Source of the DNA: a virus
Strand: one strand, 5' to 3'
IMG/VR virus record: IMGVR_UViG_3300037475_000071
Span: 1-64,000 of that record
Length of the DNA: 64,000 nucleotides
Every line of letters begins with the position of its first letter. The first letter of the stretch is position 1. The notes below the pieces were generated by a model. The model saw nothing but the letters and a program-made list of their open reading frames with translations. It was not told the origin of the DNA and made no database searches. This document shows positions 2,649 to 51,617 of this stretch, one piece after another. A program made the position numbers and the translations under genes.

Positions 2649-4147
2649 TTAAACTCCGCGTTGTTGAAAATATCTGTAGGTAAATCTTTCCTGCGCACAC
2701 AGTCGAACAGCGAGCGCCAAAGACGTTACACAGTCGTCGTAAAAACCTTCAGGAGCTTCGAACTGAATCGTGCCACCTGCGGTTTCCTTGTACTGGAAGC
2801 GTTGAAGCTCGTCGATAAGAATGGGAATTTCTGGGTAAGATATTCTTCCTTGCTCAAGCTCTACGCGGAGCGTATCAATCAACTGTCGTTTAGCTACGTT
2901 GCTGCCAATCTTGTAGGGCTCAATTACGAGGCCACAACCCTGTAACGAAGAAACAATAGGGTCGCCAATGCCTGTAGAGTCGATTGAGATGGTCGCGTTG
3001 TAGGCACGCGCAGTCTGAATGATTTTCAGAATCTGAATCTGCCAGTCAATCTGATTGAAACGTTCCCAATAAACAACGTGCTTGGTTTCCCTGTCCATCA
3101 CGGTTAGAACCGTGTAGTCATGAAGGCGAGCCAAGTCAACGCCCATAACATAAAAGTGGTCGGGCTGACGTGCAGTAAATCCGCCAGGGCGAACGCAACC
3201 TTTAATGTTGCGGAAAACTCCGGCTGACTCGTTGATGAACTCCGCCATGTATTCTTGGCGGAAGGAATCGGCGGGAAGGTTTCTCTTCGCATCCTCGATT
3301 GCCTTTCTAGGCACATGAGGGTTAGCCGCTGTCGGCATTTTTAACGAGTACCATTCGGGCCACTCGGTGGGATATAACTTGCGGTCTCCGCGACTAAAGA
3401 GATCGTAAAACCAGCCCCTTCCGTTGGGGGTGGAAATAATAATTCCGCGGCCATTCGTCTGAGTAACGGTCGTTAATACCGACTCGAAACTTGCGAACGG
3501 CATACCACGTGCTGCCTCGTCGATAATGAAGAACGACACGGCGGCACCGCGAAGTAAATCTGGGTCTTCTGCGGACTTGAAATCAATGAATGAACGGTTG
3601 CTGCCGTCTGGGTTCAGAACCGTTATGCGGTGCTTAGCTACTTGTTCCCGATAGAGGCCGTCGGGCAAACGACGTTTTACTTCTTCCATAGCCAAGTCTG
3701 ACTGGCTATACGAGGGTGCTACCCACCAATTAGTGGTGCCTGCATTTTCCCACGCTTCTTTAACTATGCGGGTTGAACAGCCGTACGTTTTGCCAAAGAT
3801 GACAATGCCCCTCGATTCGAAAACCGAGAGGCCAACTCCTTAGTTCCGCAGGCACCTACGATGAACCGTAGGCCGGGAAACATGAAAGGCAATCCTTTCG
3901 CATCGACTCCGCTGGGAAGCCAACTAGGAATAAATTCTGCCGTTATAGGAGTAGGGTTATCTGGAACAAAAAAGGGATTTAGTTTTGCTTCTTCAGGATG
4001 TACGTGGCATTCCCAAGCGTTAATTAACTTATACTGCTCCACACTGTGCGCCGGAGGTAGGGCCAACGTAACTGGCTTCCATACTTCCTTCGACAAAACA
4101 CTCTTCACTGTGTTCTTGTAAGGCTTTGCGGCCGCTGTTCTCGACAT
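2649..4147 (-). CDS. terL: terminase large subunit, interrupted by a 41-nt insert (join 4147..3839 + 3797..2649, ~485 aa)
   Basis: Joined frame gives Walker A FIVGACGTK|FGKT, WWVAPSY, Walker B FFIIDEA, STPNG, and nuclease acidic motifs GVDLA, DSTG, DDCV. Confidence 0.9.
3798..3838 (-). other. 41-nt frame-shifting hairpin insert in the terL Walker A codons
   Basis: GAGTTGGCCTCTCGGTTTTCGAATCGAGGGGCATTGTCATC between AAG (K) and TTT (F); 11-bp stem with UUCG loop at 3807-3832. Confidence 0.8.
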
Positions 4148-4604
4148 GTCTATAGTCCGTTGCCTTATCTCTTTTGGCGGAGTTGCAACTACCACACAGC
4201 GGTTGAATATTGGAAATTATATTTGGGCCGCCTACGCTACGAGGAATAACATGGTCAGGTGTTAGGGTGATTTCAGGCTCGCATTTACCACAGCACAAGC
4301 ATTTATACCCGCAGTCAGCTTTCAATCCTACCCATTCTTCAACAGTCAAAATACCTACTATGCCCTCTTTGGCACACCTGTAATTAGCCTGATATACAAT
4401 GTAGTCATCGTGGTTATCAGCTTGACGCCGCATTACCTGCTGAATTCTCACAGTACGGTGCTGTCGGTAGTTCTTTTTCTTCGCCAGCAGTTCGCACTCC
4501 ATGCACTGTCTCCTCCAATAATTCCCCCTGTCTGTTCGCAGGCGAAAATTCTCCTCGGTCAGAGGCTTGGGGATATTGCACGTTTTGCAGGTTCTCATTT
4601 CCAT
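4029..4604 (-). CDS. HNH homing endonuclease
   Basis: CKTC...CMEC zinc finger, CLCCG...DHVIP...GG...NIQPLCGSCNSAK. Confidence 0.9.
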   Translation of the reverse strand: MEMRTCKTCNIPKPLTEENFRLRTDRGNYWRRQCMECELLAKKKNYRQHRTVRIQQVMRRQADNHDDYIVYQANYRCAKEGIVGILTVEEWVGLKADCGYKCLCCGKCEPEITLTPDHVIPRSVGGPNIISNIQPLCGSCNSAKRDKATDYRHVENSGRKALQEHSEECFVEGSMEASYVGPTSGAQCGAV

Positions 4605-6012: not shown

Positions 6013-6478
6013 TGCTGGGGCTACCAGTGGGTCGAAATTACCGCAAACACTCCCCAGCTAGGTCTGCGGCTACTCTTGCCCACTATCTAAAATAAGGTTT
6101 TCCTAGATAGCTTCCTGCTACACCCCAAGGTCACAGGCTCGCAGCCGACTTAACGGCCAAACAAAATCTAAGATCATAAACGGGGAGATACGTCTCTACT
6201 CCCCGAACCGAGACACATTGCGACGGCTGGTATGTTTTGCAACCGTAGTGCTCGCTGTAAAGGTGGCGCGTATTGTACGCCGCGCCGTGCGGAAAGCCGG
6301 TAGCGAGCCGGCAACTAACAGTGTCCCGCCGTAAGTCGCACGTCCGGCAGGTGCTCAGATAAACCGCTGAGTACGGTACCCCGTTTGTTTGATTGAATGC
6401 GACGGGTGAAGTCTAAAACCTTGGCAGCCTGAGAGGGTCAGGCTGCCAAAGTTAAAAGGCGCTTGGAGGGAAGCGCCT
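6013..6478 (-). ncRNA. candidate structured leader / sRNA cluster at the head of the late operon
   Basis: Mostly ORF-free ~470 nt with many hairpins, including 6421-6449 and 6457-6478 with CCCUC(C) loops. Confidence 0.45.
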
Positions 6479-6535
6479 CATGGTTGGAAAAATTTGTGTA
6501 TTGGTGTAACTGGGCGTAATCTTGACTGTGATTCT

Positions 6536-6564
6536 AGTCTATCATGGAAAACAAAATTTGTCAA
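6536..6564 (-). promoter_or_regulatory. sigma70-type promoter for leftward transcript
   Basis: TTGACA-17-TAGACT with TGn extended -10. Confidence 0.65.
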
Positions 6565-6680
6565 CTTTTTAACACATTTTGTGATTACAACAAATAATTG
6601 TCAAGTACAACGGATTCAGTGATATACGGAGAAGCGTCCAGTGCAGGTAGGTTCCATTTTTATACTATTGTTAAGCTCAC

Positions 6681-8881: not shown

Positions 8882-9247
8882 GATGGAAGAGAAAATAATA
8901 ATCCCTACAGACTCCCCAATAGTTAACAGTTATATGAGGGGTTGGTAACCATGTTACTAGCGACGAACCTACGGTTTGATTATCTCATGGATTTATTCCG
9001 AATTGTCACCAAATTGTCACCAACCCTGTGGAAAACTCCGCATCTAGTTGTGTTTTCACACACATAAAAAAGTGCATTTGCAATTAGGTCTACATTTATA
9101 CTACCACCCTAGTGTTGTTGGATTTAGCTATACAACCTATAGTGTTTATCATGTTATAAACACTACCGCTACCTTTTTGTTAACCCTGTAGTTACTACAC
9201 ACAACATAGTTGCATTTCCACACAATCTGTGCTACTCTCCGTATTGA

Positions 9248-13124: not shown

Positions 13125-13242
13125 TTAACTGCCGACGTGAACCACTTTAATACACATCCAGTTGCTAGTCAACAGTTATTTTGTGTGACCTTTTGCACAC
13201 GATTGCTGTTGACAACACACATTTTTTGTGTGACTATCTTAC

Positions 13243-17008: not shown

Positions 17009-17617
17009 ATGAGAGTCCTTGATTTAGGATGTGGAACCGGCAAGCCGCTTACCTACTGGGGCGTAACCCCGCAGGACGAAGTGGTTGGGCTGGACATAGA
17101 CCGCGCCAGTCTGGAGGAGGCCGCCCACAAATACCCAGAGAGAAGGTTCTATGTGGGTTCTGGGGAGCAGATGCCGTTCGACGACGGACGCTTCGATAGG
17201 GTCATTTCGAACGTGGCTTTGCCATACATGAACATCCCCGCGGCCCTAAAGGAAATCAACCGCGTTCTCATCCCGGCTGGAATGCTGTCGGTTAGTTTGC
17301 ATCCGCCGCGGTTCACGCTGTCGGAACTCCGCCAAGCCTTCCCGAACCCAACGGCGACGTTGTACAGGCTGTACGTGCTGATGACAGGGGTTCTGTTTCA
17401 TTTGACTGGGTGGGCACCAACTGAGTCGTTTCAAACCAAGCGTGGAATGTGGATTGCTCTGAGACGGGCGGGGTTCTACATTACTGATATGCGTTTCGAA
17501 CGTGGTAAGAAGCAGAAGTACAGGTTTATTGTAGAGGCGATGAAGTGTACTATTACAGACCTTTTTGAAGACTCGGTGAATAGTAACGCAGGGTTACTGA
17601 AGGTGTTGAATGACTAA
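17009..17617 (+). CDS. class I SAM-dependent methyltransferase
   Basis: VLDLGCGTG, GLDID, MPFDDGRFDRV, EINRVL. Confidence 0.9.
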   Translation: MRVLDLGCGTGKPLTYWGVTPQDEVVGLDIDRASLEEAAHKYPERRFYVGSGEQMPFDDGRFDRVISNVALPYMNIPAALKEINRVLIPAGMLSVSLHPPRFTLSELRQAFPNPTATLYRLYVLMTGVLFHLTGWAPTESFQTKRGMWIALRRAGFYITDMRFERGKKQKYRFIVEAMKCTITDLFEDSVNSNAGLLKVLND

Positions 17618-17808
17618 TTTGTATAACTACTACCGCTCCGTGGCTCTCTGGTGGTGGAGATACTTGGTTAGTACAGAGTTTCGAACTTTGGTAGGATTGA
17701 AGGGGAGACGATGATTAGCTTAGTTCCATTGGTTATGATAGCGGGTTTTGGGTATGCGGTATATCTCTGGGCATCTTATAAACCTGAGAGGGTAGGCCGA
17801 CGACGCAA

Positions 17809-17939
17809 GTAGTGTATAGTTAGGAGAAGTGTTACTGGGTTTCACCGGGGTTGGCCAGTTGTAGAGTGAACAGGGGCAACCGTTCTTACCGCCCATAAGA
17901 GCGTGGAATAGAGTTACACTTCTTCTAACTGTATACTAC
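17809..17939 (+). ncRNA. candidate ncRNA: ~28-bp basal stem with multibranch top
   Basis: GTAGTGTATAGTTAGGAGAAGTGT pairs ACACTTCTTCTAACTGTATACTAC; its three non-Watson-Crick pairs are all G-U on +. Confidence 0.55.
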
Positions 17940-18736
17940 CCTCCTGCAATACCCCTCCCCCTACATATAGACATTTCTACAGTCTATACCCATATGTGGT
18001 ATACCTCGCTCTCTGAACTCCGCCCAACACATATTCCCGCCCAGTGAAGGTTCACTAGCTTGCACAGGATGAGAAAAGCACTGGGAGGAACGGGGTCTAC
18101 GCTGCTACAACGAGTTAGCAGAGCGTAGGTGTGCCTAGACCTCATCCCGGCTCTATCTGTCGTTCCTAGCGGCGTATCCCTATGACTACTGTGGCTTTCA
18201 TAGGATGGGTGACAGGTCGGTAACTTCGTAAGTGACTCAGTTATAACCTAGTTAGATGTGTATAAATGGGTTGGAAACGTTGTATTAGACCCGTCAACCA
18301 CCCCGTAATCTCCCCTTCCTTCCCCGCCCAACCATGACCCTACCATGTAATAACTACATGAAACTAGGTAAGAGACGCTGCGAAGACCTAGTGGGACTGG
18401 GTTTACGTAGTTGGATGAGGTTGGAGACTGGGTTTTACGTGATTGATATTGTTTGAGAGTGGGTACGCCGTAGTCTATAACCTTGCCTACAGATAAGTTT
18501 GAGACAGTGAGAAACAAACAGGAGTAGTGTTCAGCATTACCGAACGTACACGTATCGTGTACAGCAACACTGTTTAAACAATGTAAACCCCACTGTACAG
18601 CTCTAACCTGCTACTGTACCTACTGGTGTCTCTGGCATAGGCCGGCGATCGTGGTGCAGGTTTTCTACATATGTATATGCGCTCACCAGGATTCGCACAC
18701 TCTGCGTTCGCTATTCCCGAATAGCGAATATGTGCC

Positions 18737-18756
18737 TGTGGAAAACCTGTGCATAA
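18737..18756 (-). promoter_or_regulatory. tandem DnaA-box-like nonamers
   Basis: Minus strand TTATGCACA and TTTTCCACA, 2 nt apart. Confidence 0.4.
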
Positions 18757-18842
18757 CTACCAGACACATCTTTTTATTGTCTACACAACAGACTGACAAT
18801 ACATCCACTTACACTTTTCTTTTGTGATTCCACACTTTTCTG

Positions 18843-18871
18843 TTGACATCCAATCCTAACAGGTTTAACTT
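18843..18871 (+). promoter_or_regulatory. sigma70-type early promoter
   Basis: TTGACA-17-TAACTT with upstream AT-rich tract. Confidence 0.6.
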
Positions 18872-18877
18872 CACATC

Positions 18878-19635
18878 ATCGCAAGCGGGTTACAGCAAGC
18901 GAGTAGCAGAGAATCAAGAGATTCTGAAAGCTGCTAATTGACATCGAGAGTGCTACAACGAACCGAGTAATCGTCGCAGGCATAGGACGTAAAGCCTGTA
19001 CTCTCACCAACAGTCTAGTTCAAAGCTGGCGTTACTAGGGTTTGACACTAGGCGACGATGGCGCGGTGAGTTTAGGACGTGACCTGCGGACAGTGTACCG
19101 TTCATATGGTTTGGAGTCCGAAAGCCGCAAGCGGTGAGCGCAATTAGCTTCAGCTCACAGTATGCCGATAATCGCTGCCGAGTAACAGTTTAATCCCGCC
19201 AAGTGGAATGTAGGTAATACGCGACATTCCGCGATAGTTCGCCAATAGCGCAATGACTAGCACGTTACGCAATAGCAAGCGTACGTGATTGGATGCTCGG
19301 ATGAGGATACCAATCTTAAGCTCAAGCTACAGGGCAGCATTCACTGGCATTCTGGCGATTGTATGAGGACAGACCAAAGCGCATAAACGCGACCCATTGC
19401 AGAGAATAGCAGAATAAGCCACTGTGACCACTGGGCAAAGCATAACAGAATGTTTTTACCTTGCATTCTGTACCTATGGCGGAATACAGAAAAGAGAATC
19501 GCCGGCGAGCAACCTATTACGCTATTCAGCATTACGCTGGATGGCGTAACAAAGTGAATCCGGCGCGAGCAACCTACTGGATGTGTGGCAACACTCCGCG
19601 CCAATGTACATAGTGCAAGAGTAAGCACATTGTGA
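18878..19635 (+). ncRNA. candidate large structured ncRNA (~750 nt)
   Basis: No ORF on + in the track; many hairpins, frequent GCAA/GAAA/GTAA words, long-range pairings, directly after a promoter. Confidence 0.6.
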
Positions 19636-21226
19636 GGTAATCATGGCATACGATCACCGCTACACGTATGTAACTTGCTCTAAATGCCTGAATAAATGGC
19701 AGCGCATCGACTACGGATGTGCTCACCATCAGTTAACCTGCGGGTACCCATTACCCGCGCAACTAGAACCTAATCCTACACGCGCATTAACTACTGAGGA
19801 ATGGGAACAGTTTGACAAATGTCTCCCTTACGTCAAAGCATTACACAATATTGTAGAGGCTACTTCTGCGTACCATAAATACGATACTGCGGGTAGACCT
19901 TGGCTAGTAGAAGCGTTGCGGATAGTTGGCCGCGCAGGTAAGGAGTAACTCCCATGTTCTATATAACAATTCACGGTTTTACCCTAGAGCAAGTTTTGAT
20001 TATGGCGGCTTTGAACATAGCTAGCCAAGATGAGCACACCTCAGATTGGCTGTAAGGGGACACTATGCCGGAATACCATGTTTGGGAACGGGGATGTAAT
20101 CGCGGTCGGAGTACTGGAAAAGTTATTACCGCGCCTAATATTTACAAGGCTGTAGAGCAGTTAGCAGGAACAAACATTCTTAATCTTTCGTCACTTCAAT
20201 ATTTGTCTTGTGGAACTAGCAAAAGTAACCCAGGGCGTTTTATTGCATCGGACGGTTCAGCGCGGGAATTTACCGCGTATGAAATACACGAGTTTTCCCT
20301 TTAATGGGAAATAGCTAGGTCATAGGCGCATACGCGGAGAACCTGCCGCACAGTGTGCGCCTACGTAGTAATTCAATAAGGCGGGATTCTAAAACCCGCC
20401 ATCCAGAGGAGCAAACCGCATATGCTCACTGTACAGCATGACCCGTTCAAAGGCATCTTCCGAGTATCACGCGGAACTAGCCTAATCGCATCCCTGCCGG
20501 AAATATCCGCCAGATCATTCGCGGAAGATGTCCGGTCGATATTCAACCAAGCGAAAGATTGCCCGTCACAGGCTTTCATGGTGCCTAACGTGTGCGCCCG
20601 TTTCTAATTCACAATGAATACGGTACACTCGCCATTGTGTATGCTAGCCACTTACAGGATGCGCTAGACGAAGCGGTAGACGCTGACAGGATGAATAGTT
20701 GCCTTGTTTCGGATGAGGATTACGCGGAAGCGGAAAAAGAAGGATGGGCAGACGAGTATGCACGATTAGGAAATGCCGGAGAACCGTTTGACCTAACGTA
20801 TATCGGGTATGTGGAACTACCCAACCAACAGTACGGACTACCAGACTCCGGCGAGTAAAGGATGGTCACCCTATGTCACTAAAAGAGTTTATTGAAGCAT
20901 CCCGCGTACTGGCAATTGCACACTTTAGGGCCGGCACTCCAGAAGGCAAGGCGAAGCTATTGGCGGCAGGCGGCACAGCTCTACCTCAATGCACAATATC
21001 GCAAACGGTAAGGATGGTTACCCATGTCTAAAAAAGACTTCATTGCATTGGCGGATTCTATCCGTGCATTTCCTGGCCGGTTTTCCAATGAGCAAATCTT
21101 CATGCTGGCGGAGTTTTGCAAATCCCGCAATCCCGCCTTTAACCGCGAGAGATGGCTTTCGTATATCGCGGGTGAATGTGGGCCTAATGGTGGCCGGAAG
21201 TAATAACCGCGTTTGACAGGATGGCC

Positions 21227-22270: not shown

Positions 22271-23083
22271 GTGAAAATAAAGTTTGAGATTAAGCATTGG
22301 GCGGGAAAAGTGTTGTTCACCTACGAAGGCGAAACATTGAAAGAGGCTGTTGTCGCGGCGGTTAAGTCCCGCGCAAACCTGTACGGCGCAAACCTGTACG
22401 GCGCAAACCTGTACGGAGCAGACCTGTACGGAGCAAACCTGTCCCGCGCAAACCTGTACGGCGCAAACCTGTCCGGCGCAAACCTGTACGGAGCAAACCT
22501 GTCCCGCGCAAACCTGTACGGAGCAAACCTGTACGGCGCAAACCTGTACGGAGCAGACCTGTACGGAGCAAACCTGTCCCGCGCAAACCTGTACGGCGCA
22601 AACCTGTCCGGCGCAAACCTGTACGGAGCAAACCTGTCCCGCGCAAACCTGTACGGAGCAAACCTGTCCCGCGCAAACCTGTACGGAGCAGACCTGTACG
22701 GAGCAAACCTGTCCGGCGCAGACCTGTACGGAGCAAACCTAAAAGAAGTAAAGAACAGTGAGCTAGTGCTGCTGCGAACCTCAATTCTTCCCCAAGATGG
22801 GCCGCTATTTGGCTGGAAGAAATGCATGAATGGGGTGTTAGTAAAACTCGCTGTCGGTTCAAAAGCCAAGCGCAGCAACGCATATGGGCGAAAATGCAGG
22901 GCCGAATACGTAAAAGTCTTGGAGGTTCACGGGGCAGATGTAGGCATCAGTGCACACGATCAAAAGACCGAATATCGAGTGGGTAAAATCGTCCGCTGCA
23001 ATAAGTGGGATGAAGATCGCTGGAACGAATGCTCTGGCGGAATTCATTTTTTTCTGAGCAAAGAGGAAGCGCAGGCGTACTAA
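22271..23083 (+). CDS. pentapeptide-repeat protein with conserved C-terminal domain
   Basis: ~25 A(N/D)L(Y/S)(G/R) repeats; C-terminal GWKKC...RKCRAE...ECSGGIHFF (DUF5758-like from memory). Confidence 0.9.
22369..22741 (+). repeat. 15-bp tandem repeat encoding the pentapeptide units
   Basis: GCA(A/G)ACCTGT(A/C)C(G/C)G(A/C) x ~25. Confidence 0.95.
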
Positions 23084-32026: not shown

Positions 32027-32056
32027 TTGACACTACACATGTTTTGCTTGTATTTT
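32027..32056 (+). promoter_or_regulatory. promoter of the TTGACA-NN-ACACA family
   Basis: TTGACACTACACAT...TG TATTTT. Confidence 0.6.
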
Positions 32057-35898: not shown

Positions 35899-37809
35899 AT
35901 TTCAGTAGTTTTGAAAAGGAGAACAATGCACTACGCAAATGGAAAAGAAGCTAAGAACGGGGACAAAATAGTTCACATTTCGCCGTATAGTGGTCACGTT
36001 ACAGTAGGCATTCTTTATGATGCCGTAGCTGGCAACGATTACTGCAACGGGAAATTGGCTATTACATCCGTCTCTGATCCCTGCCCTAACCTAAAGGAGT
36101 GTCTTCACTTGGATGATGTGAAGGCTTTGTTCCCAGAAAAGCTGGAGTTGGTTCCTACTAAAGGAGACAAACGTGGTAACAGTAGAGATTAACGTCACTA
36201 AGAAAGACATTGCTCAAGGCGTGTGCTCTGACGGCACTAATTGCCCCATAGCGCGTGCTGCTATTCGGGCAGGATTCGACGAAGTAGGTGTTGACAGTTT
36301 GGGACTGGTCTTCGGGTACGGGAACCTTGTACGCACAACATTTGGTAGCTATTTTGAGGATGGTGGTTGGGCGAATCTGCCTAAAGTAGCTAAAACCTTT
36401 GTTGAAACTTTCGACGGACAAGGCGAAGTTAAACCATTCAAATTTCGAGTCAAACTTAAGAACTCCGTAGCTAAGCAGTTGAAACTACGCAAATCCGCGA
36501 TTGTCTCCGCCTAACATGGACTTCACTTTCAACAACATCGCCGCCGAGGTTCAGCAACTCAGTCCTCGTGCCGCCGTGGTTAGAGATAGCCTGAAGAAGT
36601 TGCAGGGTCGGATGAACGATTCCACCTTCGAACTGGCCGACTTGCTGGCCGAAGCTCTGGAGAACAACTACCCGACCCAGCTTGGCTTCGCTGACCTCAA
36701 TGCGTGGCTCGAAGACGCGGAACTGGACATTCGGCAGCGGCAGGCCGAACAACTTGTTCAAATCAAGTATAGGAGCGAGGCTCTTGGCATACCACGCGAG
36801 ACACTGCGCCACCTAGCGACTGGGAAACTCAAGGCCATCTTCTCCCTCGACGTTGATCGGCATTTTGGCGGGGATAAGGCCAAGTACGAAGCCGCCGTAC
36901 GCGGACTGGTAGAAGAAGCCCCGAATACCAAGCTGGATGCGCTGGAATCCAAAGTCCGGCAACAGAAAGGCATCGAGGAGGAAGGCACCGTTCTTCGCTC
37001 ATACCGTATGAGCGAGGAAGGCTACGAGAACGAAGTCAAGCCAGCCATTGAAAGAGTTAAAGGTTTGGCGGGGCAAGAGATGTCCGACGGGGCGGCACTG
37101 ATTGAGATTTGCTCAGACTTCAACGCTGGGCCTGACAGTATTTAAGGTCAACTATATGGTACCTTAAGCCACATAAGCACAATTATAAGACACTTTAAAA
37201 GTAAATAAAAAATGGGAATAACCTTCAAAATAGTTGCTTCTGAACGCAAACTGGTTGACAAGATTGAATGTGACCACTGCGGTAAAGAAATCAAGAAACA
37301 TTCCGAGGGCAACTGGAATCCCTACGGAGAGCCATACAGCAAATTCCACAAGCCGTTGTTCGACGACTATTTTCTGCTGCAACACAGTTGGGGGTACAGT
37401 TCCCGCAAGGATTTAGAGACTCACGAAGCTGTAATCTGCGAGGACTGCTACGACGTTATTTTCAAGAACGTAAAGATTCATATTAAGCATTACGCATAAG
37501 GAGAACCCATTGTTTATCTTCAATTCATGCCCCGACCACACGCACATCATCCTCGAAGGTGACGAACGGGACATCGTTCAGTCACTTCTGGAAGCCTCTG
37601 TATTTGGCGGCGATGGTGCTGTTGACTCTGAGCAACTATCCCACTACGTAGCGGACGAGACTGGAGCTACGCCGCTAGGGGTTATGGTGACTACTTCAGA
37701 GTTGGCCGACCAGCTCATGTACGCACTCTGTAACCCTGACTACAACAACGACGAAGAGACGGAAGCTAAGCCTTTGACGACGGCTAGCAACACGACGACC
37801 ATCAACTAA

Positions 37810-46880: not shown

Positions 46881-48725
46881 TTGAGCACAAAGAAAGAGAA
46901 GCTGAAAGCCTTGGAGAACGCCGCCGAAGCACTGGAGAAGACCCACGGAGAAGGTTCAATCATGCGAGTTGGTTCGCGCAAGATTGTCCCCATCGACGTT
47001 ATCCCTACCCAGATATTCGAGCTTGACCACTACGTCATCGGGGCTGGTGGGTTTCCACGGGGGCGCATCGTGGAGGTGTACGGCCCAGAAGCGTGCTTGG
47101 ACGGGGATTCGTTCATACAATACAGTATAAGAACCAAGGAAGGACGCCGCCAGAATCAAAAGGGGGGAACAATACGGCGGCTGTTCCAACGCTTCAATAG
47201 TATTCCCACCAAGGGAAAAGGCTATTACCAGAGAGCTTGCACAAAAGACGCAGTATTTTTCGCTACCTCTATAAATGAAGAAGGCAGGGTCTTTCAGAAC
47301 AGGGTATTGGGTGTATTTTATGCTGGCGACAAGCCTTGTTTTAAGTTAACAACACAATCAGGCAGGGCAATATTAGCGAGTGCAGATCACAAATTCTTTG
47401 TGGGGAACAAATACGTTGAACTAGGGTCGCTGCAAGTGGGAGACACACTATACATACACAACAACACTCGCTTTAAGTGTGGCGACAATACAGAACGCCC
47501 CTATAGAAAAGACTTACTCGTTAAACATCACCCCGTTGCTGGTACCAAAGTAATTGAAGGTAAGTACACTTACCATCGTATAGCTCAGTCCAGAGCCACA
47601 GTTGAAGCAGAAATGAATGGCATGTCCCTAGATGCCTACGTCGCTCTGCTCAATGCAGGAGACATCGAGGGAATACGGGTGCTCTCCCGTGAAGACCATG
47701 TACATCACATTGATGAGAACCCCTCAAATGATGCGTTGTCTAATCTGGTTGTAATTATAGGAGAGGAACATAATAGGTTACACGCTACATTAAATCACAA
47801 CTATTTGCGTTTCACAGCCGTACCCGATTCCGTTGCCTCCGTGGAATATGCGGGCGTTCGGGACACATATGACATCCGTATGGCTGCCCCCTTTAACAAT
47901 TACGTAGCTAACGAATTCATAGTTCACAACTCAGGAAAAACCACCATCGCCCTTCAAGTGGTTGCCAACGTTCAACAGGGCGGAGGCACGGCTGCCTACA
48001 TCGACGCTGAACACGCTCTCGACCTCAACTACGCACAGTCTCTCGGGGTAGAGACCAACGATGTCTTCCTAAGCCAGCCTGATAACGGCGAACAGGCTCT
48101 GGAGATCGCAGACGGTCTCATCGAGACAGGAATGGTAGACATTGTTGTAGTTGACTCCGTTGCTGCGCTGATTCCAGCGGCGGAATTGAATGGAGAAATG
48201 ACCGACCAATTCATGGGACTGCAAGCACGTCTCATGGGTAAAGCCATGCGCAAGCTGGCTGGCAAGGTGCGCAGAACTGGTACCTGTCTCGTGTTCATTA
48301 ACCAGATACGCGAGAAGATTGGCGTTCAATTTGGCTCACCAGAAACGACACCCGGTGGACGTGCACTGAAGTTTGCAGCGTCGTTGCGACTGGATGTACG
48401 CCGTACTGAGCAAGTGAAAGATGGAGAAGCTATTGTCGGAGCTAAGACCAAGTTCAAAGCCGCGAAGAACAAAATAGCTGCACCACTAAGGGAGTGCTCG
48501 GTTGACCTGCTGTATGGAACTGGGTTCGATAAGGCTGGCAGCCTGGTTGCGGCGGGGTTGAAGTACGGCGTAGTAGAGAAGTCAGGCTCTTGGTACAACG
48601 TATTCGGAGACCGTATCGGACAGGGAGCACTCAATGCAGCGCAGACTGTGCGTAGTAGTCCGGAGTTGTTCACCAAGATTGCGGCGGCGATTCTAAAGAT
48701 TAAGGAAGAGGAGACTAAGAAATGA
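46881..48725 (+). CDS. recA: RecA recombinase containing an intein
   Basis: GRIVEVYGPEA|SGKTT, YIDAEHALD, VVDSVAAL, FINQIREKIG, TPGGRALKF. Confidence 0.95.
   Translation: MSTKKEKLKALENAAEALEKTHGEGSIMRVGSRKIVPIDVIPTQIFELDHYVIGAGGFPRGRIVEVYGPEACLDGDSFIQYSIRTKEGRRQNQKGGTIRRLFQRFNSIPTKGKGYYQRACTKDAVFFATSINEEGRVFQNRVLGVFYAGDKPCFKLTTQSGRAILASADHKFFVGNKYVELGSLQVGDTLYIHNNTRFKCGDNTERPYRKDLLVKHHPVAGTKVIEGKYTYHRIAQSRATVEAEMNGMSLDAYVALLNAGDIEGIRVLSREDHVHHIDENPSNDALSNLVVIIGEEHNRLHATLNHNYLRFTAVPDSVASVEYAGVRDTYDIRMAAPFNNYVANEFIVHNSGKTTIALQVVANVQQGGGTAAYIDAEHALDLNYAQSLGVETNDVFLSQPDNGEQALEIADGLIETGMVDIVVVDSVAALIPAAELNGEMTDQFMGLQARLMGKAMRKLAGKVRRTGTCLVFINQIREKIGVQFGSPETTPGGRALKFAASLRLDVRRTEQVKDGEAIVGAKTKFKAAKNKIAAPLRECSVDLLYGTGFDKAGSLVAAGLKYGVVEKSGSWYNVFGDRIGQGALNAAQTVRSSPELFTKIAAAILKIKEEETKK
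47094..47930 (+). mobile_element. intein (279 aa) with HNH endonuclease, inserted in the RecA P-loop
   Basis: Starts CLDGD, ends IVHN followed by Ser; ADHKF block B; HVHHIDENPSND...NL...H. Confidence 0.92.
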
Positions 48726-51077: not shown

Positions 51078-51617
51078 GGAGAGTAATGCTATCAGGGTTG
51101 AATTAAGACAACGCGGCACACAGAAAGGGGGAAAATATAAGAGGAGAGAATCTTTTTATGTCTATCTCTGCTCTGCGTGTGGCAAAGAGATTGCTTTCAC
51201 ATACAGCGAACTGCGTCGTGTATCAGGCAGGTGCAAAACATGCTCGAATAAGGAAACTGGAAAGAAAACATCAATTAGGGAGCGCCTTGAACCATACAAG
51301 GCGCTCTTCAATAAGTTTATGTATGACCGCGCAAGAGATAATCACGATGTCGATTTAACGTTTTTAGACTTTTTAGAGTTCACCGCGATAAGGTATGTCA
51401 TTATTGTGGCAATACCGTTACTTGGGCGACTCACAATCTTCAGAAAAATGGTTACCGCTATAATCTCGATCGCAAAGACAACGATGTTGGCTACCTAAAA
51501 TACAACGTTGTTGTCTGCTGTTGGCGTTGCAACGAAACAAAAGCTGACCGATTTACGTACGAGCAGTTCGTTCAGATAGGAGCCGTCATTCGTTCGTGGT
51601 CGTTAAATACCAGTTGA
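51055..51617 (+). pseudogene. frameshifted HNH-type endonuclease
   Basis: Frame 0 breaks near 51390; -1 frame continues CHYCG...LDRKDN..GY..NVV.CC.RCN..K to TGA at 51615. Confidence 0.7.

Follow-up and report, generated by a model that had tools for sequence, protein, structure and literature searches.

Untranslated leaders at the head of phage early operons are familiar from T7 and lambda, where they measure ~430 nucleotides (nt) and ~220 nt, respectively. In lambda, cutting of the N leader by RNase III relieves the occlusion of the ribosome site; in T7, one RNase III site is located just before gene 0.3. To our knowledge, untranslated leaders of 0.8–0.9 kb are rare in tightly packed phage genomes. 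RNase III processing sites of the T7 early transcript have been described (PMC4858673). Here we analyze a stretch of DNA at the head of a rightward early operon in a phage genome from IMG/VR (IMGVR_UViG_3300037475_000071), which an original prediction, made from the sequence alone, had proposed as a large, highly structured non-coding RNA (ncRNA) of a new class, or as an antiterminator, expressed first on infection. The analyzed window comprises 64,000 nt, i.e. bases 1–64000 of a 100,155-bp contig that CheckV rates as complete; positions below refer to this window unless another genome is named.

We give about an even chance to the reading that positions 18878–19642 form an exceptionally long untranslated 5' leader of the early operon, folded and with a control or processing element beside the ribosome site. 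No known RNA family includes the stretch, nor can it be shown to be a new conserved class of ncRNA; most likely it is an unusually long structured early-operon leader that is kept by position in a clade of phages that has been little studied. By similarity of the family A DNA polymerase, the nearest described phages are Tunturi_4 (35% identity) and Tunturi_3 (29%), which are phages of Tunturiibacter (Acidobacteriota). Both originate from tundra soil (PMC11924767); the same paper is silent on their open reading frame (ORF)-free regions and on their genome termini. The closest relative in IMG/VR is G001, whose polymerase is 42% identical to ours. These phages, together with the IMG/VR phage L067, account for most of the comparisons below; "the four phages" are ours, G001, Tunturi_4 and L067.

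Absence of genes

No credible ORF is found in 18878–19642, as the original prediction had stated for the plus strand between the promoter and the ATG at 19643. The true ORF-free stretch is larger and extends from 17813 to 19642 (1.83 kb); it starts directly after the gene for a membrane peptide of 33 amino acids and is the longest ORF-free stretch of the 100-kb genome. TAA, TAG and TGA are all frequent in its six frames. An alternative genetic code was considered and ruled out, because with all three stop codons dense in every frame no recoding opens the stretch.

For the two longest ORFs and five shorter ones inside the stretch (31–95 amino acids), no match was found in Pfam or PHROG. The ORF of 95 amino acids on the minus strand (19341–19628) has one relative among 5.8 billion proteins, P0005, encoded on a JGI contig of 1,188 nt. 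The match between P0005 and our DNA is spread over three different reading frames; hence, frameshifting indels separate the two sequences, and the ORF is not kept as a coding sequence. A search for shorter homologs of this ORF found none, and tblastx between the ORF-free loci of the four phages returned nothing significant.

Promoter and direction of transcription

The sigma70-type promoter that had been proposed in front of the stretch (TTGACA-17-TAACTTCAC at 18843) is missed by a generic promoter scan; against this, it matches promoters which the phage itself repeats, and on the strength of this likeness the proposal stands. Members of this promoter family (TTGACA-N17/18-TATCTT-like) are located at 13209, 29686, 31148, 32027, 44728 and 51614. 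The site at 18843 has the flank TTTTCTGTTGACA in common with the promoter at 32027, and T(A/T)TCTTCAC in common with the one at 51614. Between their two hexamers, the promoters of the family have an inverted repeat, ACACA...TGTGT, that looks like an operator common to them, and several of them are followed by ORF-free leaders of 200–300 nt; the promoter at 18843 has no such operator. Repeats common to the other leaders of the same genome were also considered, and only promoter words proved to be shared.

At the promoter, the composition of the strand changes. In the 1,030 nt upstream of it, the purine fraction is 0.48 and the AT skew −0.04; in the 765 nt after it, the purine fraction is 0.56, the AT skew +0.17 and G exceeds C (+0.07), as in the 3 kb of genes that follow. 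Each of the four phages shows this onset of purine and AT skew at its promoter, with values in the leader that match those of the downstream genes. On the minus strand between 17 and 20 kb there is no TTGACA, and no promoter was found there; no terminator-like site was detected in 17400–20200. From this we infer that the stretch is transcribed rightward and that the transcript runs into the first gene. Because it does so without a terminator, we regard the stretch as a 5' leader, not as a separate RNA gene.

Folding of the putative leader

The whole leader has a fold energy of −255 kcal/mol, with z = −3.4 in a comparison with 20 shuffles and z = −3.9 with 30. Fourteen coding controls of the same length from the same genome gave z = −0.47 ± 0.95 (minimum −1.6); the excess of folding over the coding DNA of this genome is real. 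At the scale of 150-nt windows, the region 19425–19650 alone is outstanding, with z of −5.2 and −4.0 on the plus strand versus −2.8 and −1.4 on the minus strand.

Three domains are predicted (Table 1). Domain 2 encloses the hairpins GGAATGT/ACATTCC and CACGTTACGC/GCGTACGTG; inside domain 3, a CGCCGG/CCGGCG helix and a 14-bp hairpin with two G.U pairs are predicted. The closing duplex of domain 3 would end 9 nt before the ATG and cover the first G of the GAGG ribosome site, and the two G that follow would pair with bases at the start of the coding sequence.

The hairpins listed in the original prediction all exist, most of them within the minimum-energy fold, and the duplicated GCGAGCAACCTA noticed there belongs to a 26-nt direct repeat (81% identity, spaced 60 nt). 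The proposed pseudoknot of ATCGTCGC with GCGACGAT was not confirmed: both segments are better read as part of a nested 20-bp helix (18950–18975 with 19054–19078), which competes with the stem GAGAGTG/TACTCTC. Nor do the alternative pairings count as evidence, since by our own arithmetic perfect 8-nt complements are expected ~4–5 times by chance in 765 nt.

Putative leaders at the same place in related phages

Three related phages possess a leader of similar length at the corresponding place. In Tunturi_4 (L004), 2.37 kb of ORF-free DNA lie 7.9 kb downstream of the polymerase gene on the same strand, and the promoter TTGACA-N18-TAGAGT at 22664 would give rise to a leader of ~890 nt. In G001 (L043), a tiny membrane ORF is followed by ~0.8 kb of C-rich DNA and the promoter TTGCAA-N17-TATCTT, with a leader of ~880 nt. 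L067, a phage of 87.7 kb, has 2.1 kb of ORF-free DNA with a −35-like box TTGCTT near 3134 and no clear −10, and its leader measures ~830 nt. A syntenic ORF-poor gap of 2.3 kb is present in a further genome, L008. The putative transcripts of our phage and G001 start alike with CATCGC(G)CAAGCG (CATCGCGCAAGCG in G001 versus CATCGCAAGCG in ours).

The gene after the leader encodes an orthologous AAA+ ATPase in G001, Tunturi_4 and L067, the protein of Tunturi_4 being 37% identical to that of G001 and 69% to that of L067; hence, these three leaders are true positional homologs. The ATPase (L043 11551–12906, minus strand; L004 23591–24868; L067 4001–5254) has a Cys-rich N-terminus and is called 'porphyrin biosynthesis protein' in the annotation of Tunturi_4. 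A translated search with the Tunturi_4 region holding this gene gave no match in our phage.

All leaders are purine-rich with G exceeding C. Fold z on the sense and antisense strand amounts to −2.9 and −2.9 in G001, −3.6 and −0.6 in Tunturi_4, and −4.5 and −1.1 in L067; the upstream halves of the loci reach only +0.6 to −2.6. Sequence similarity is scarce. The leaders of Tunturi_4 and L067, whose flanking protein is 69% identical, have no more in common than an island of 33 nt around CTTTGACAAT and both ends; our leader shares a few 7–8-mers with the others and nothing more. Among the ORF-free loci, blastn, nhmmer and MAFFT aligned nothing beyond short words. Because positional counterparts share no alignable sequence, a conserved elaborate fold across the leaders is unlikely; what is kept, as far as the sequences tell, is length, composition, general foldedness and a terminal hairpin.

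This terminal element is a predicted duplex of 19–30 bp, which ends all four leaders 9–43 nt before the start codon (23 bp in G001, 30 bp in ours). In Tunturi_4 and L067, a hairpin of 20 bp ends ~40 nt before the start codon in perfect register. Its 20 pairs include seven compensatory changes, two changes to or from G.U and no disruptive change, and both hairpins have the same bulged G; the register was anchored on the conserved 3' arm, as MAFFT with RNAalifold misaligned the 5' arms. Such a pattern clearly points to selection on this hairpin as RNA. For domain 3 of our leader, six base changes were deduced from amino-acid differences between P0005 and our translation. Two of them, 19501 G>A and 19564 C>U, compensate each other (G-C to A-U), and 19502 C>U forms a wobble pair with G19563; two further changes have their partners at frame-silent, unreadable sites, and one lies in an unpaired stretch. 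Among the few close relatives compared, covariation is limited to the terminal hairpin of Tunturi_4 and L067 and to one pair of our 3' domain.

Known RNA families

In the 64-kb window, no Rfam family reached the gathering score. With E values up to 10, the region 18000–20200 yielded three chance-level matches only (19, 15 and 14 bits versus thresholds of 48, 47 and 60). The counterparts in Tunturi_4 and Tunturi_3 gave no Rfam match, and ARAGORN found no tRNA or tmRNA within the window. These results agree with the original statement that tmRNA, RNase P and group I/II cores are not recognizable here. Of the proposal of a new large class of ncRNA, one part holds, i.e. the stretch is non-coding, structured and outside the known families; a class of the GOLLD or ROOL type is not supported, because there is no terminator and the counterparts share no alignable sequence. 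The suggested antiterminator finds no support: a search of the leader for boxA (CGCTCTTTA-like) with 1–3 mismatches found none, and no cis-regulatory family of Rfam, hence no put-like element, matched, put-like folds not having been searched separately.

Proposed function of the leader and points against it

If the stretch is a leader, host RNA polymerase would make it from TTGACA-17-TAACTT at 18843–18871, and without a terminator the transcript would continue into the first gene, which encodes a protein of 101 amino acids. We propose domain 3 (19446–19634) as the working part: a processing and translation-control element comparable to those which RNase III cuts in the early transcript of T7 and in the N leader of lambda. 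Once cut or opened, it would expose the ribosome site, and a protective stem would stay on the mRNA. The other ~570 nt would serve as a folded spacer that evolves fast, whose purine-rich, structured body with its surplus of G over C may keep Rho and RNases off a long untranslated RNA. The start of transcription, the processing and the translation control are what we infer here; observed are the lack of coding sequence, a promoter like others of the phage, folding in excess of the controls, the change of strand composition at the promoter, counterparts at the corresponding place in related phages, and covariation of the terminal hairpin in two of them. The leader would start directly after an origin-like module, and the 1.8-kb ORF-free locus takes the same place in related Acidobacteriota phages.

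Several observations weigh against this reading. In 150-nt windows, local structure is not above chance throughout 18825–19424 (z ~0, one window at −2.2). The minus strand of the whole 765 nt folds equally well or better than the plus strand (z −4.2 and −5.5), and a cause at the DNA level therefore has to be weighed. A helix of at least 30 bp is obtained in 12% of dinucleotide shuffles, and one of at least 19 bp near the 3' end in 16%; hence, in a single sequence, the duplex beside the ribosome site is no more than suggestive. For our phage, the covariation comes from one relative, which is known through its translated ORF only. Tunturi_3 (L005) keeps an ORF-free locus of 1.66 kb with tandem repeats, but its promoter is located ~30 nt before the first gene and there is no leader; a long leader is therefore not universal. 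In L002, a metagenome relative of the first gene, small genes stand upstream instead of a leader. Finally, cleavage of domain 3 by RNase III is a conjecture.

The upstream half of the locus

According to its sequence, the upstream half of the ORF-free locus (17813–18842) looks like DNA-level control or origin sequence that is not transcribed from the promoter at 18843. ORF-free DNA syntenic with it is present in G001, Tunturi_4, Tunturi_3 and L067. The 9-mer CCCTACCAT recurs in Tunturi_4 (L004 21599), G001 (L043 14224, minus strand) and L067 (2363), always in the orientation of the operon; by our own estimate, the chance of a 9-mer common to all four phages is ~1e-4.

Three of the eight genome matches to TTWTNCACA fall within the 1.8-kb locus, where 0.44 would be expected for one-mismatch matches to the DnaA box TTATCCACA; over the whole genome, such sites are no more numerous than by chance. 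In L067, the matching place holds TTATCCACA and ATATCCACA in tandem; Tunturi_3 has a perfect TTATCCACA, and G001 TTTTCCACA; in these three phages the boxes lie 75–450 nt upstream of the promoters. Seven of the eight TTWTNCACA sites of our genome are intergenic (outside the locus at 9027, 12124, 13191 and 28339), and these sites may serve a regulator other than DnaA.

The AT-rich stretch 18757–18842 ranks 32nd of 10,008 windows of 80 nt, i.e. in the top 0.3%. The most AT-rich windows are 6511–6551 and 37131–37191 (GC 0.25–0.31), the first of which lies in an ORF-free gap of 590 nt (6091–6680). The minimum of the GC skew is near 9 kb, not at 18 kb. At the other end of the locus, a 37-nt inverted repeat (78% complementary, 57 nt apart; 17809–17939) begins at the stop codon that closes the polymerase operon, whose transcript it may end.

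The unannotated gaps of the Tunturi phages contain further repeats. In the 2.4-kb gap of Tunturi_4 (L004 21820–22170), seven tandem units of GACACACACA and a long GT-rich tract are found; CTAG words are numerous in this gap (14 per kb versus 5 elsewhere). The 1.7-kb gap of Tunturi_3 (L005 17940–18010 and 17260–17450) holds four tandem units of the 13-nt TATTGAGTACGTT, repeats of GTACTGACCCCCTAT and, at 18427, a DnaA box with the perfect sequence TTATCCACA; the gap is a good origin candidate.

Table 1. Features of the ORF-free locus and its first gene (positions in the window).
Feature	Position	Strand	Basis and remarks
Upstream half of the ORF-free locus	17813–18842		Stop codons dense; AT skew ~0; fold z ~−2 on both strands
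9-mer CCCTACCAT	18338–18346	+	Also in the upstream halves of Tunturi_4, G001 and L067
Two iteron-like direct repeats GACTGGGTTT(T)ACGT, 31 nt apart	18394–18442	+	A further copy, weaker, at 17834
Tandem DnaA-box-like sites TTTTCCACA and TTATGCACA, 11 nt apart	18737–18756	-	Third site at 18257
AT-rich stretch between DnaA-like boxes and promoter	18757–18842		GC 0.36 versus 0.505 for the genome
Promoter TTGACA-17-TAACTT	18843–18871	+	Resembles the phage's own promoters; probable transcription start near 18878
Putative untranslated leader RNA, 765 nt, three predicted domains	18878–19642	+	Fold z; composition; no terminator; no Rfam match
Domain 1 (predicted): 20-bp long-range helix (18950–18975 with 19054–19078) around a 16-bp hairpin	18950–19078	+	Mean pair probability 0.98; inverted repeat
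Domain 2 (predicted): 17-bp closing helix (19174–19193 with 19316–19338)	19174–19338	+	Mean pair probability 0.92
Domain 3 (predicted): 30-bp closing duplex (19446–19481 with 19599–19634)	19446–19634	+	Pair probabilities 0.83–1.0
Two 26-nt direct repeats (19491–19516 and 19551–19576) flanking a 14-bp hairpin (19517–19549)	19491–19576	+	Repeat search; predicted pairs
First gene, Cys/His-rich protein of 101 amino acids	19643–19948	+	GAGG ribosome site at 19634–19637; no Pfam family

The first gene and the genome setting

A metagenome scan led to two short contigs, L002 and L003, which have only the N-terminal domain of the first gene in common with our phage. This Cys/His-rich domain (YDxRY..VTCSKC..QRIDYG..H..TCGYPLPAQ) is strongly conserved across three metagenome homologs (L002 907–1152; L003 74–178). 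C-termini and flanks are unrelated among the homologs; hence, the small gene is a mosaic. At the place of the leader, L002 contains two small Cys-rich ORFs of 55 and 63 amino acids (424–591 and 668–858), which follow a TTGACA promoter.

Apart from the family A DNA polymerase, the genes of the phage include helicases, a primase-helicase, an integrase, a terminase and tail genes. The UvsX/RecA-like gene (46881–48725) has an HNH endonuclease segment in its middle. For the large terminase (2649–4604), the profile matches only the C-terminal part, in an ORF of 348 amino acids; hence, the gene is split. A physical genome end or packaging site at the ORF-free locus was considered as well and seems improbable, given that the terminase gene and the start of the late operon are located at 2.6–8.9 kb.

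In none of INPHARED, IMG/VR and the GTDB genomes did a phage with DNA alignable to ours turn up. A DNA search of the INPHARED phages gave no alignable relative of 17600–19700. In IMG/VR, no match was obtained with the first gene, the methyltransferase or the polymerase as single proteins, nor with the alignment of the first gene, and an exact-pattern scan for the duplicated motif gave none either. The GTDB genomes, queried with the polymerase alignment, contained no match.

Alternative explanations

A different role as RNA is unlikely, though it deserves to be set out: the stretch could yield a functional ncRNA tied to the adjacent origin-like DNA, whose transcript activates or primes replication, or an abundant early decoy RNA. 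The promoter directly follows the tandem pair of DnaA-like boxes and a stretch that is among the most AT-rich of the genome, and the order of boxes, promoter and long leader recurs in L067 and G001. Length (765–890 nt), purine richness and foldedness are kept in the four phages, while the sequence is not; these phages have a family A DNA polymerase, and an RNase H is annotated in the Tunturi phages. However, the skew minimum lies elsewhere, the DnaA-like boxes are no more frequent in the genome than by chance, and the leader's surplus of G over C is weak for R-loop formation. Neither a terminator nor any other sign of a separate RNA is present, and Tunturi_3 has repeats and a DnaA box, yet no long leader.

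In a further reading, this clade of Acidobacteriota phages would share a new kind of early RNA of 0.8–0.9 kb, purine-rich, strongly folded and fast-evolving, that is made from a promoter next to the DnaA-box and AT-rich module and acts as RNA itself; this we regard as improbable. If true, it could for instance prime or activate replication at the origin, or soak up a host nuclease or defence sensor early in infection, and selection would act only on length, foldedness and the terminal hairpin.

We consider it similarly improbable that the feature acts at the DNA level, with the whole 1.8 kb being an origin or regulatory spacer, the inverted repeats binding proteins or forming cruciforms, and the RNA being incidental. 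The folding of the minus strand in our leader speaks for it, and so do the conserved words, which occur in either orientation (GTTTTCCAC is inverted in ours relative to the other phages; CCCTACCAT is shared). Tandem repeats are found in the loci of Tunturi_3 and Tunturi_4, and additional TTGACA words without a −10 element occur at 18938 and 19042, and in Tunturi_4 at 22771 and 23339. On the other side, Tunturi_4 and L067 show excess folding on the sense strand only, the G.U pairs of the conserved hairpin would be A.C mismatches on the other strand, and our 3' domain favors the plus strand. Furthermore, the conserved words sit in the upstream half, not in the leader, and the composition of the leader is that of transcribed DNA.

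Quite improbable is the view that the stretch is neutral, i.e. decayed genes or leftover DNA whose fold signal is a by-product of composition or history. It would fit the lack of sequence conservation between Tunturi_4 and L067 despite their similar flanking protein, the frameshifting indels that distinguish the near relative P0005, and the locally unremarkable middle of our leader. Yet phage genomes are tightly packed, and 0.8–0.9 kb of ORF-free DNA are kept at one and the same place among phages whose polymerases are only 35–42% identical to ours; the four leaders fold 3–4.5 standard deviations better than shuffles, which the coding controls do not; the terminal hairpin covaries; and no trace of protein similarity was found. 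The stretch does contain several ORFs of 31–58 amino acids on the plus strand and ORFs of 89 and 95 amino acids on the minus strand. That it encodes one or more small unannotated proteins is very improbable, since the plus-strand ORFs that were inspected are not preceded by a ribosome site, none of the scanned ORFs matches a family in Pfam or PHROG, translated similarity between the four loci is not conserved, and the 95-amino-acid ORF matches its relative in three frames and has no shorter homologs that we could find. A role at the DNA level, neutral sequence and small proteins are all less likely than a structured leader.

What is kept at this locus is place, size, composition and foldedness, while the sequence drifts, which points to selection that does not act on one particular fold. 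Tunturi_4 has been cultured and its host is known; hence, the ideas of a processing hairpin before the first gene, of protection from Rho and of a link to an adjacent origin are testable at the bench. If the RNA acts in replication or counter-defence, it would represent a new phage strategy; if not, the locus is a useful warning against claiming a new RNA class from strong fold scores alone.

Comparison with known systems

The upstream half resembles the iteron and DnaA-box origins of plasmids and phage P1 in its tandem DnaA-box-like sites, short direct repeats and adjacent AT-rich stretch. It differs from them in that it has only two to three weak iteron copies, boxes that deviate from TTATCCACA and no identified initiator gene.

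The half that is probably transcribed invites comparison with the large RNAs GOLLD, ROOL, HEARO and OLE of Rfam, with which it has in common a length of several hundred nt, the absence of coding sequence, a predicted multi-domain fold and a phage context. Those families are defined by conserved cores, whereas our positional counterparts have no conserved sequence blocks; moreover, our RNA has no terminator, hence is not a separate gene, and matches no Rfam family even at E = 10.

With respect to replication, ColE1 RNA II, the R-loops of T4 oriF and oriG and the primary origin of T7 offer a parallel: there, too, a promoter at an unwinding-prone stretch drives a long, structured, untranslated transcript, a family A polymerase is present in our phage, and RNase H is annotated in its relatives. 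In contrast, the skew minimum of our genome lies elsewhere, no marked G-rich run was seen, no plasmid RNA of Rfam matches, and those origins are not characterized by DnaA boxes.

The early leader of T7 and the pL-N leader of lambda differ from ours in several respects. With 765 nt, and 830–890 nt in the related phages, our leader is longer than either; it has a single recognizable promoter, no nut or boxA was found, and there is no sequence relation. Its duplex would be a long-range helix that closes a domain of 190 nt, not a simple hairpin, and its cleavage is only proposed. The overall arrangement is nevertheless alike: a promoter for the host polymerase heads the early region, the untranslated leader that follows would continue into the first early gene, and a long imperfect duplex is predicted just upstream of that gene, where T7 has one.

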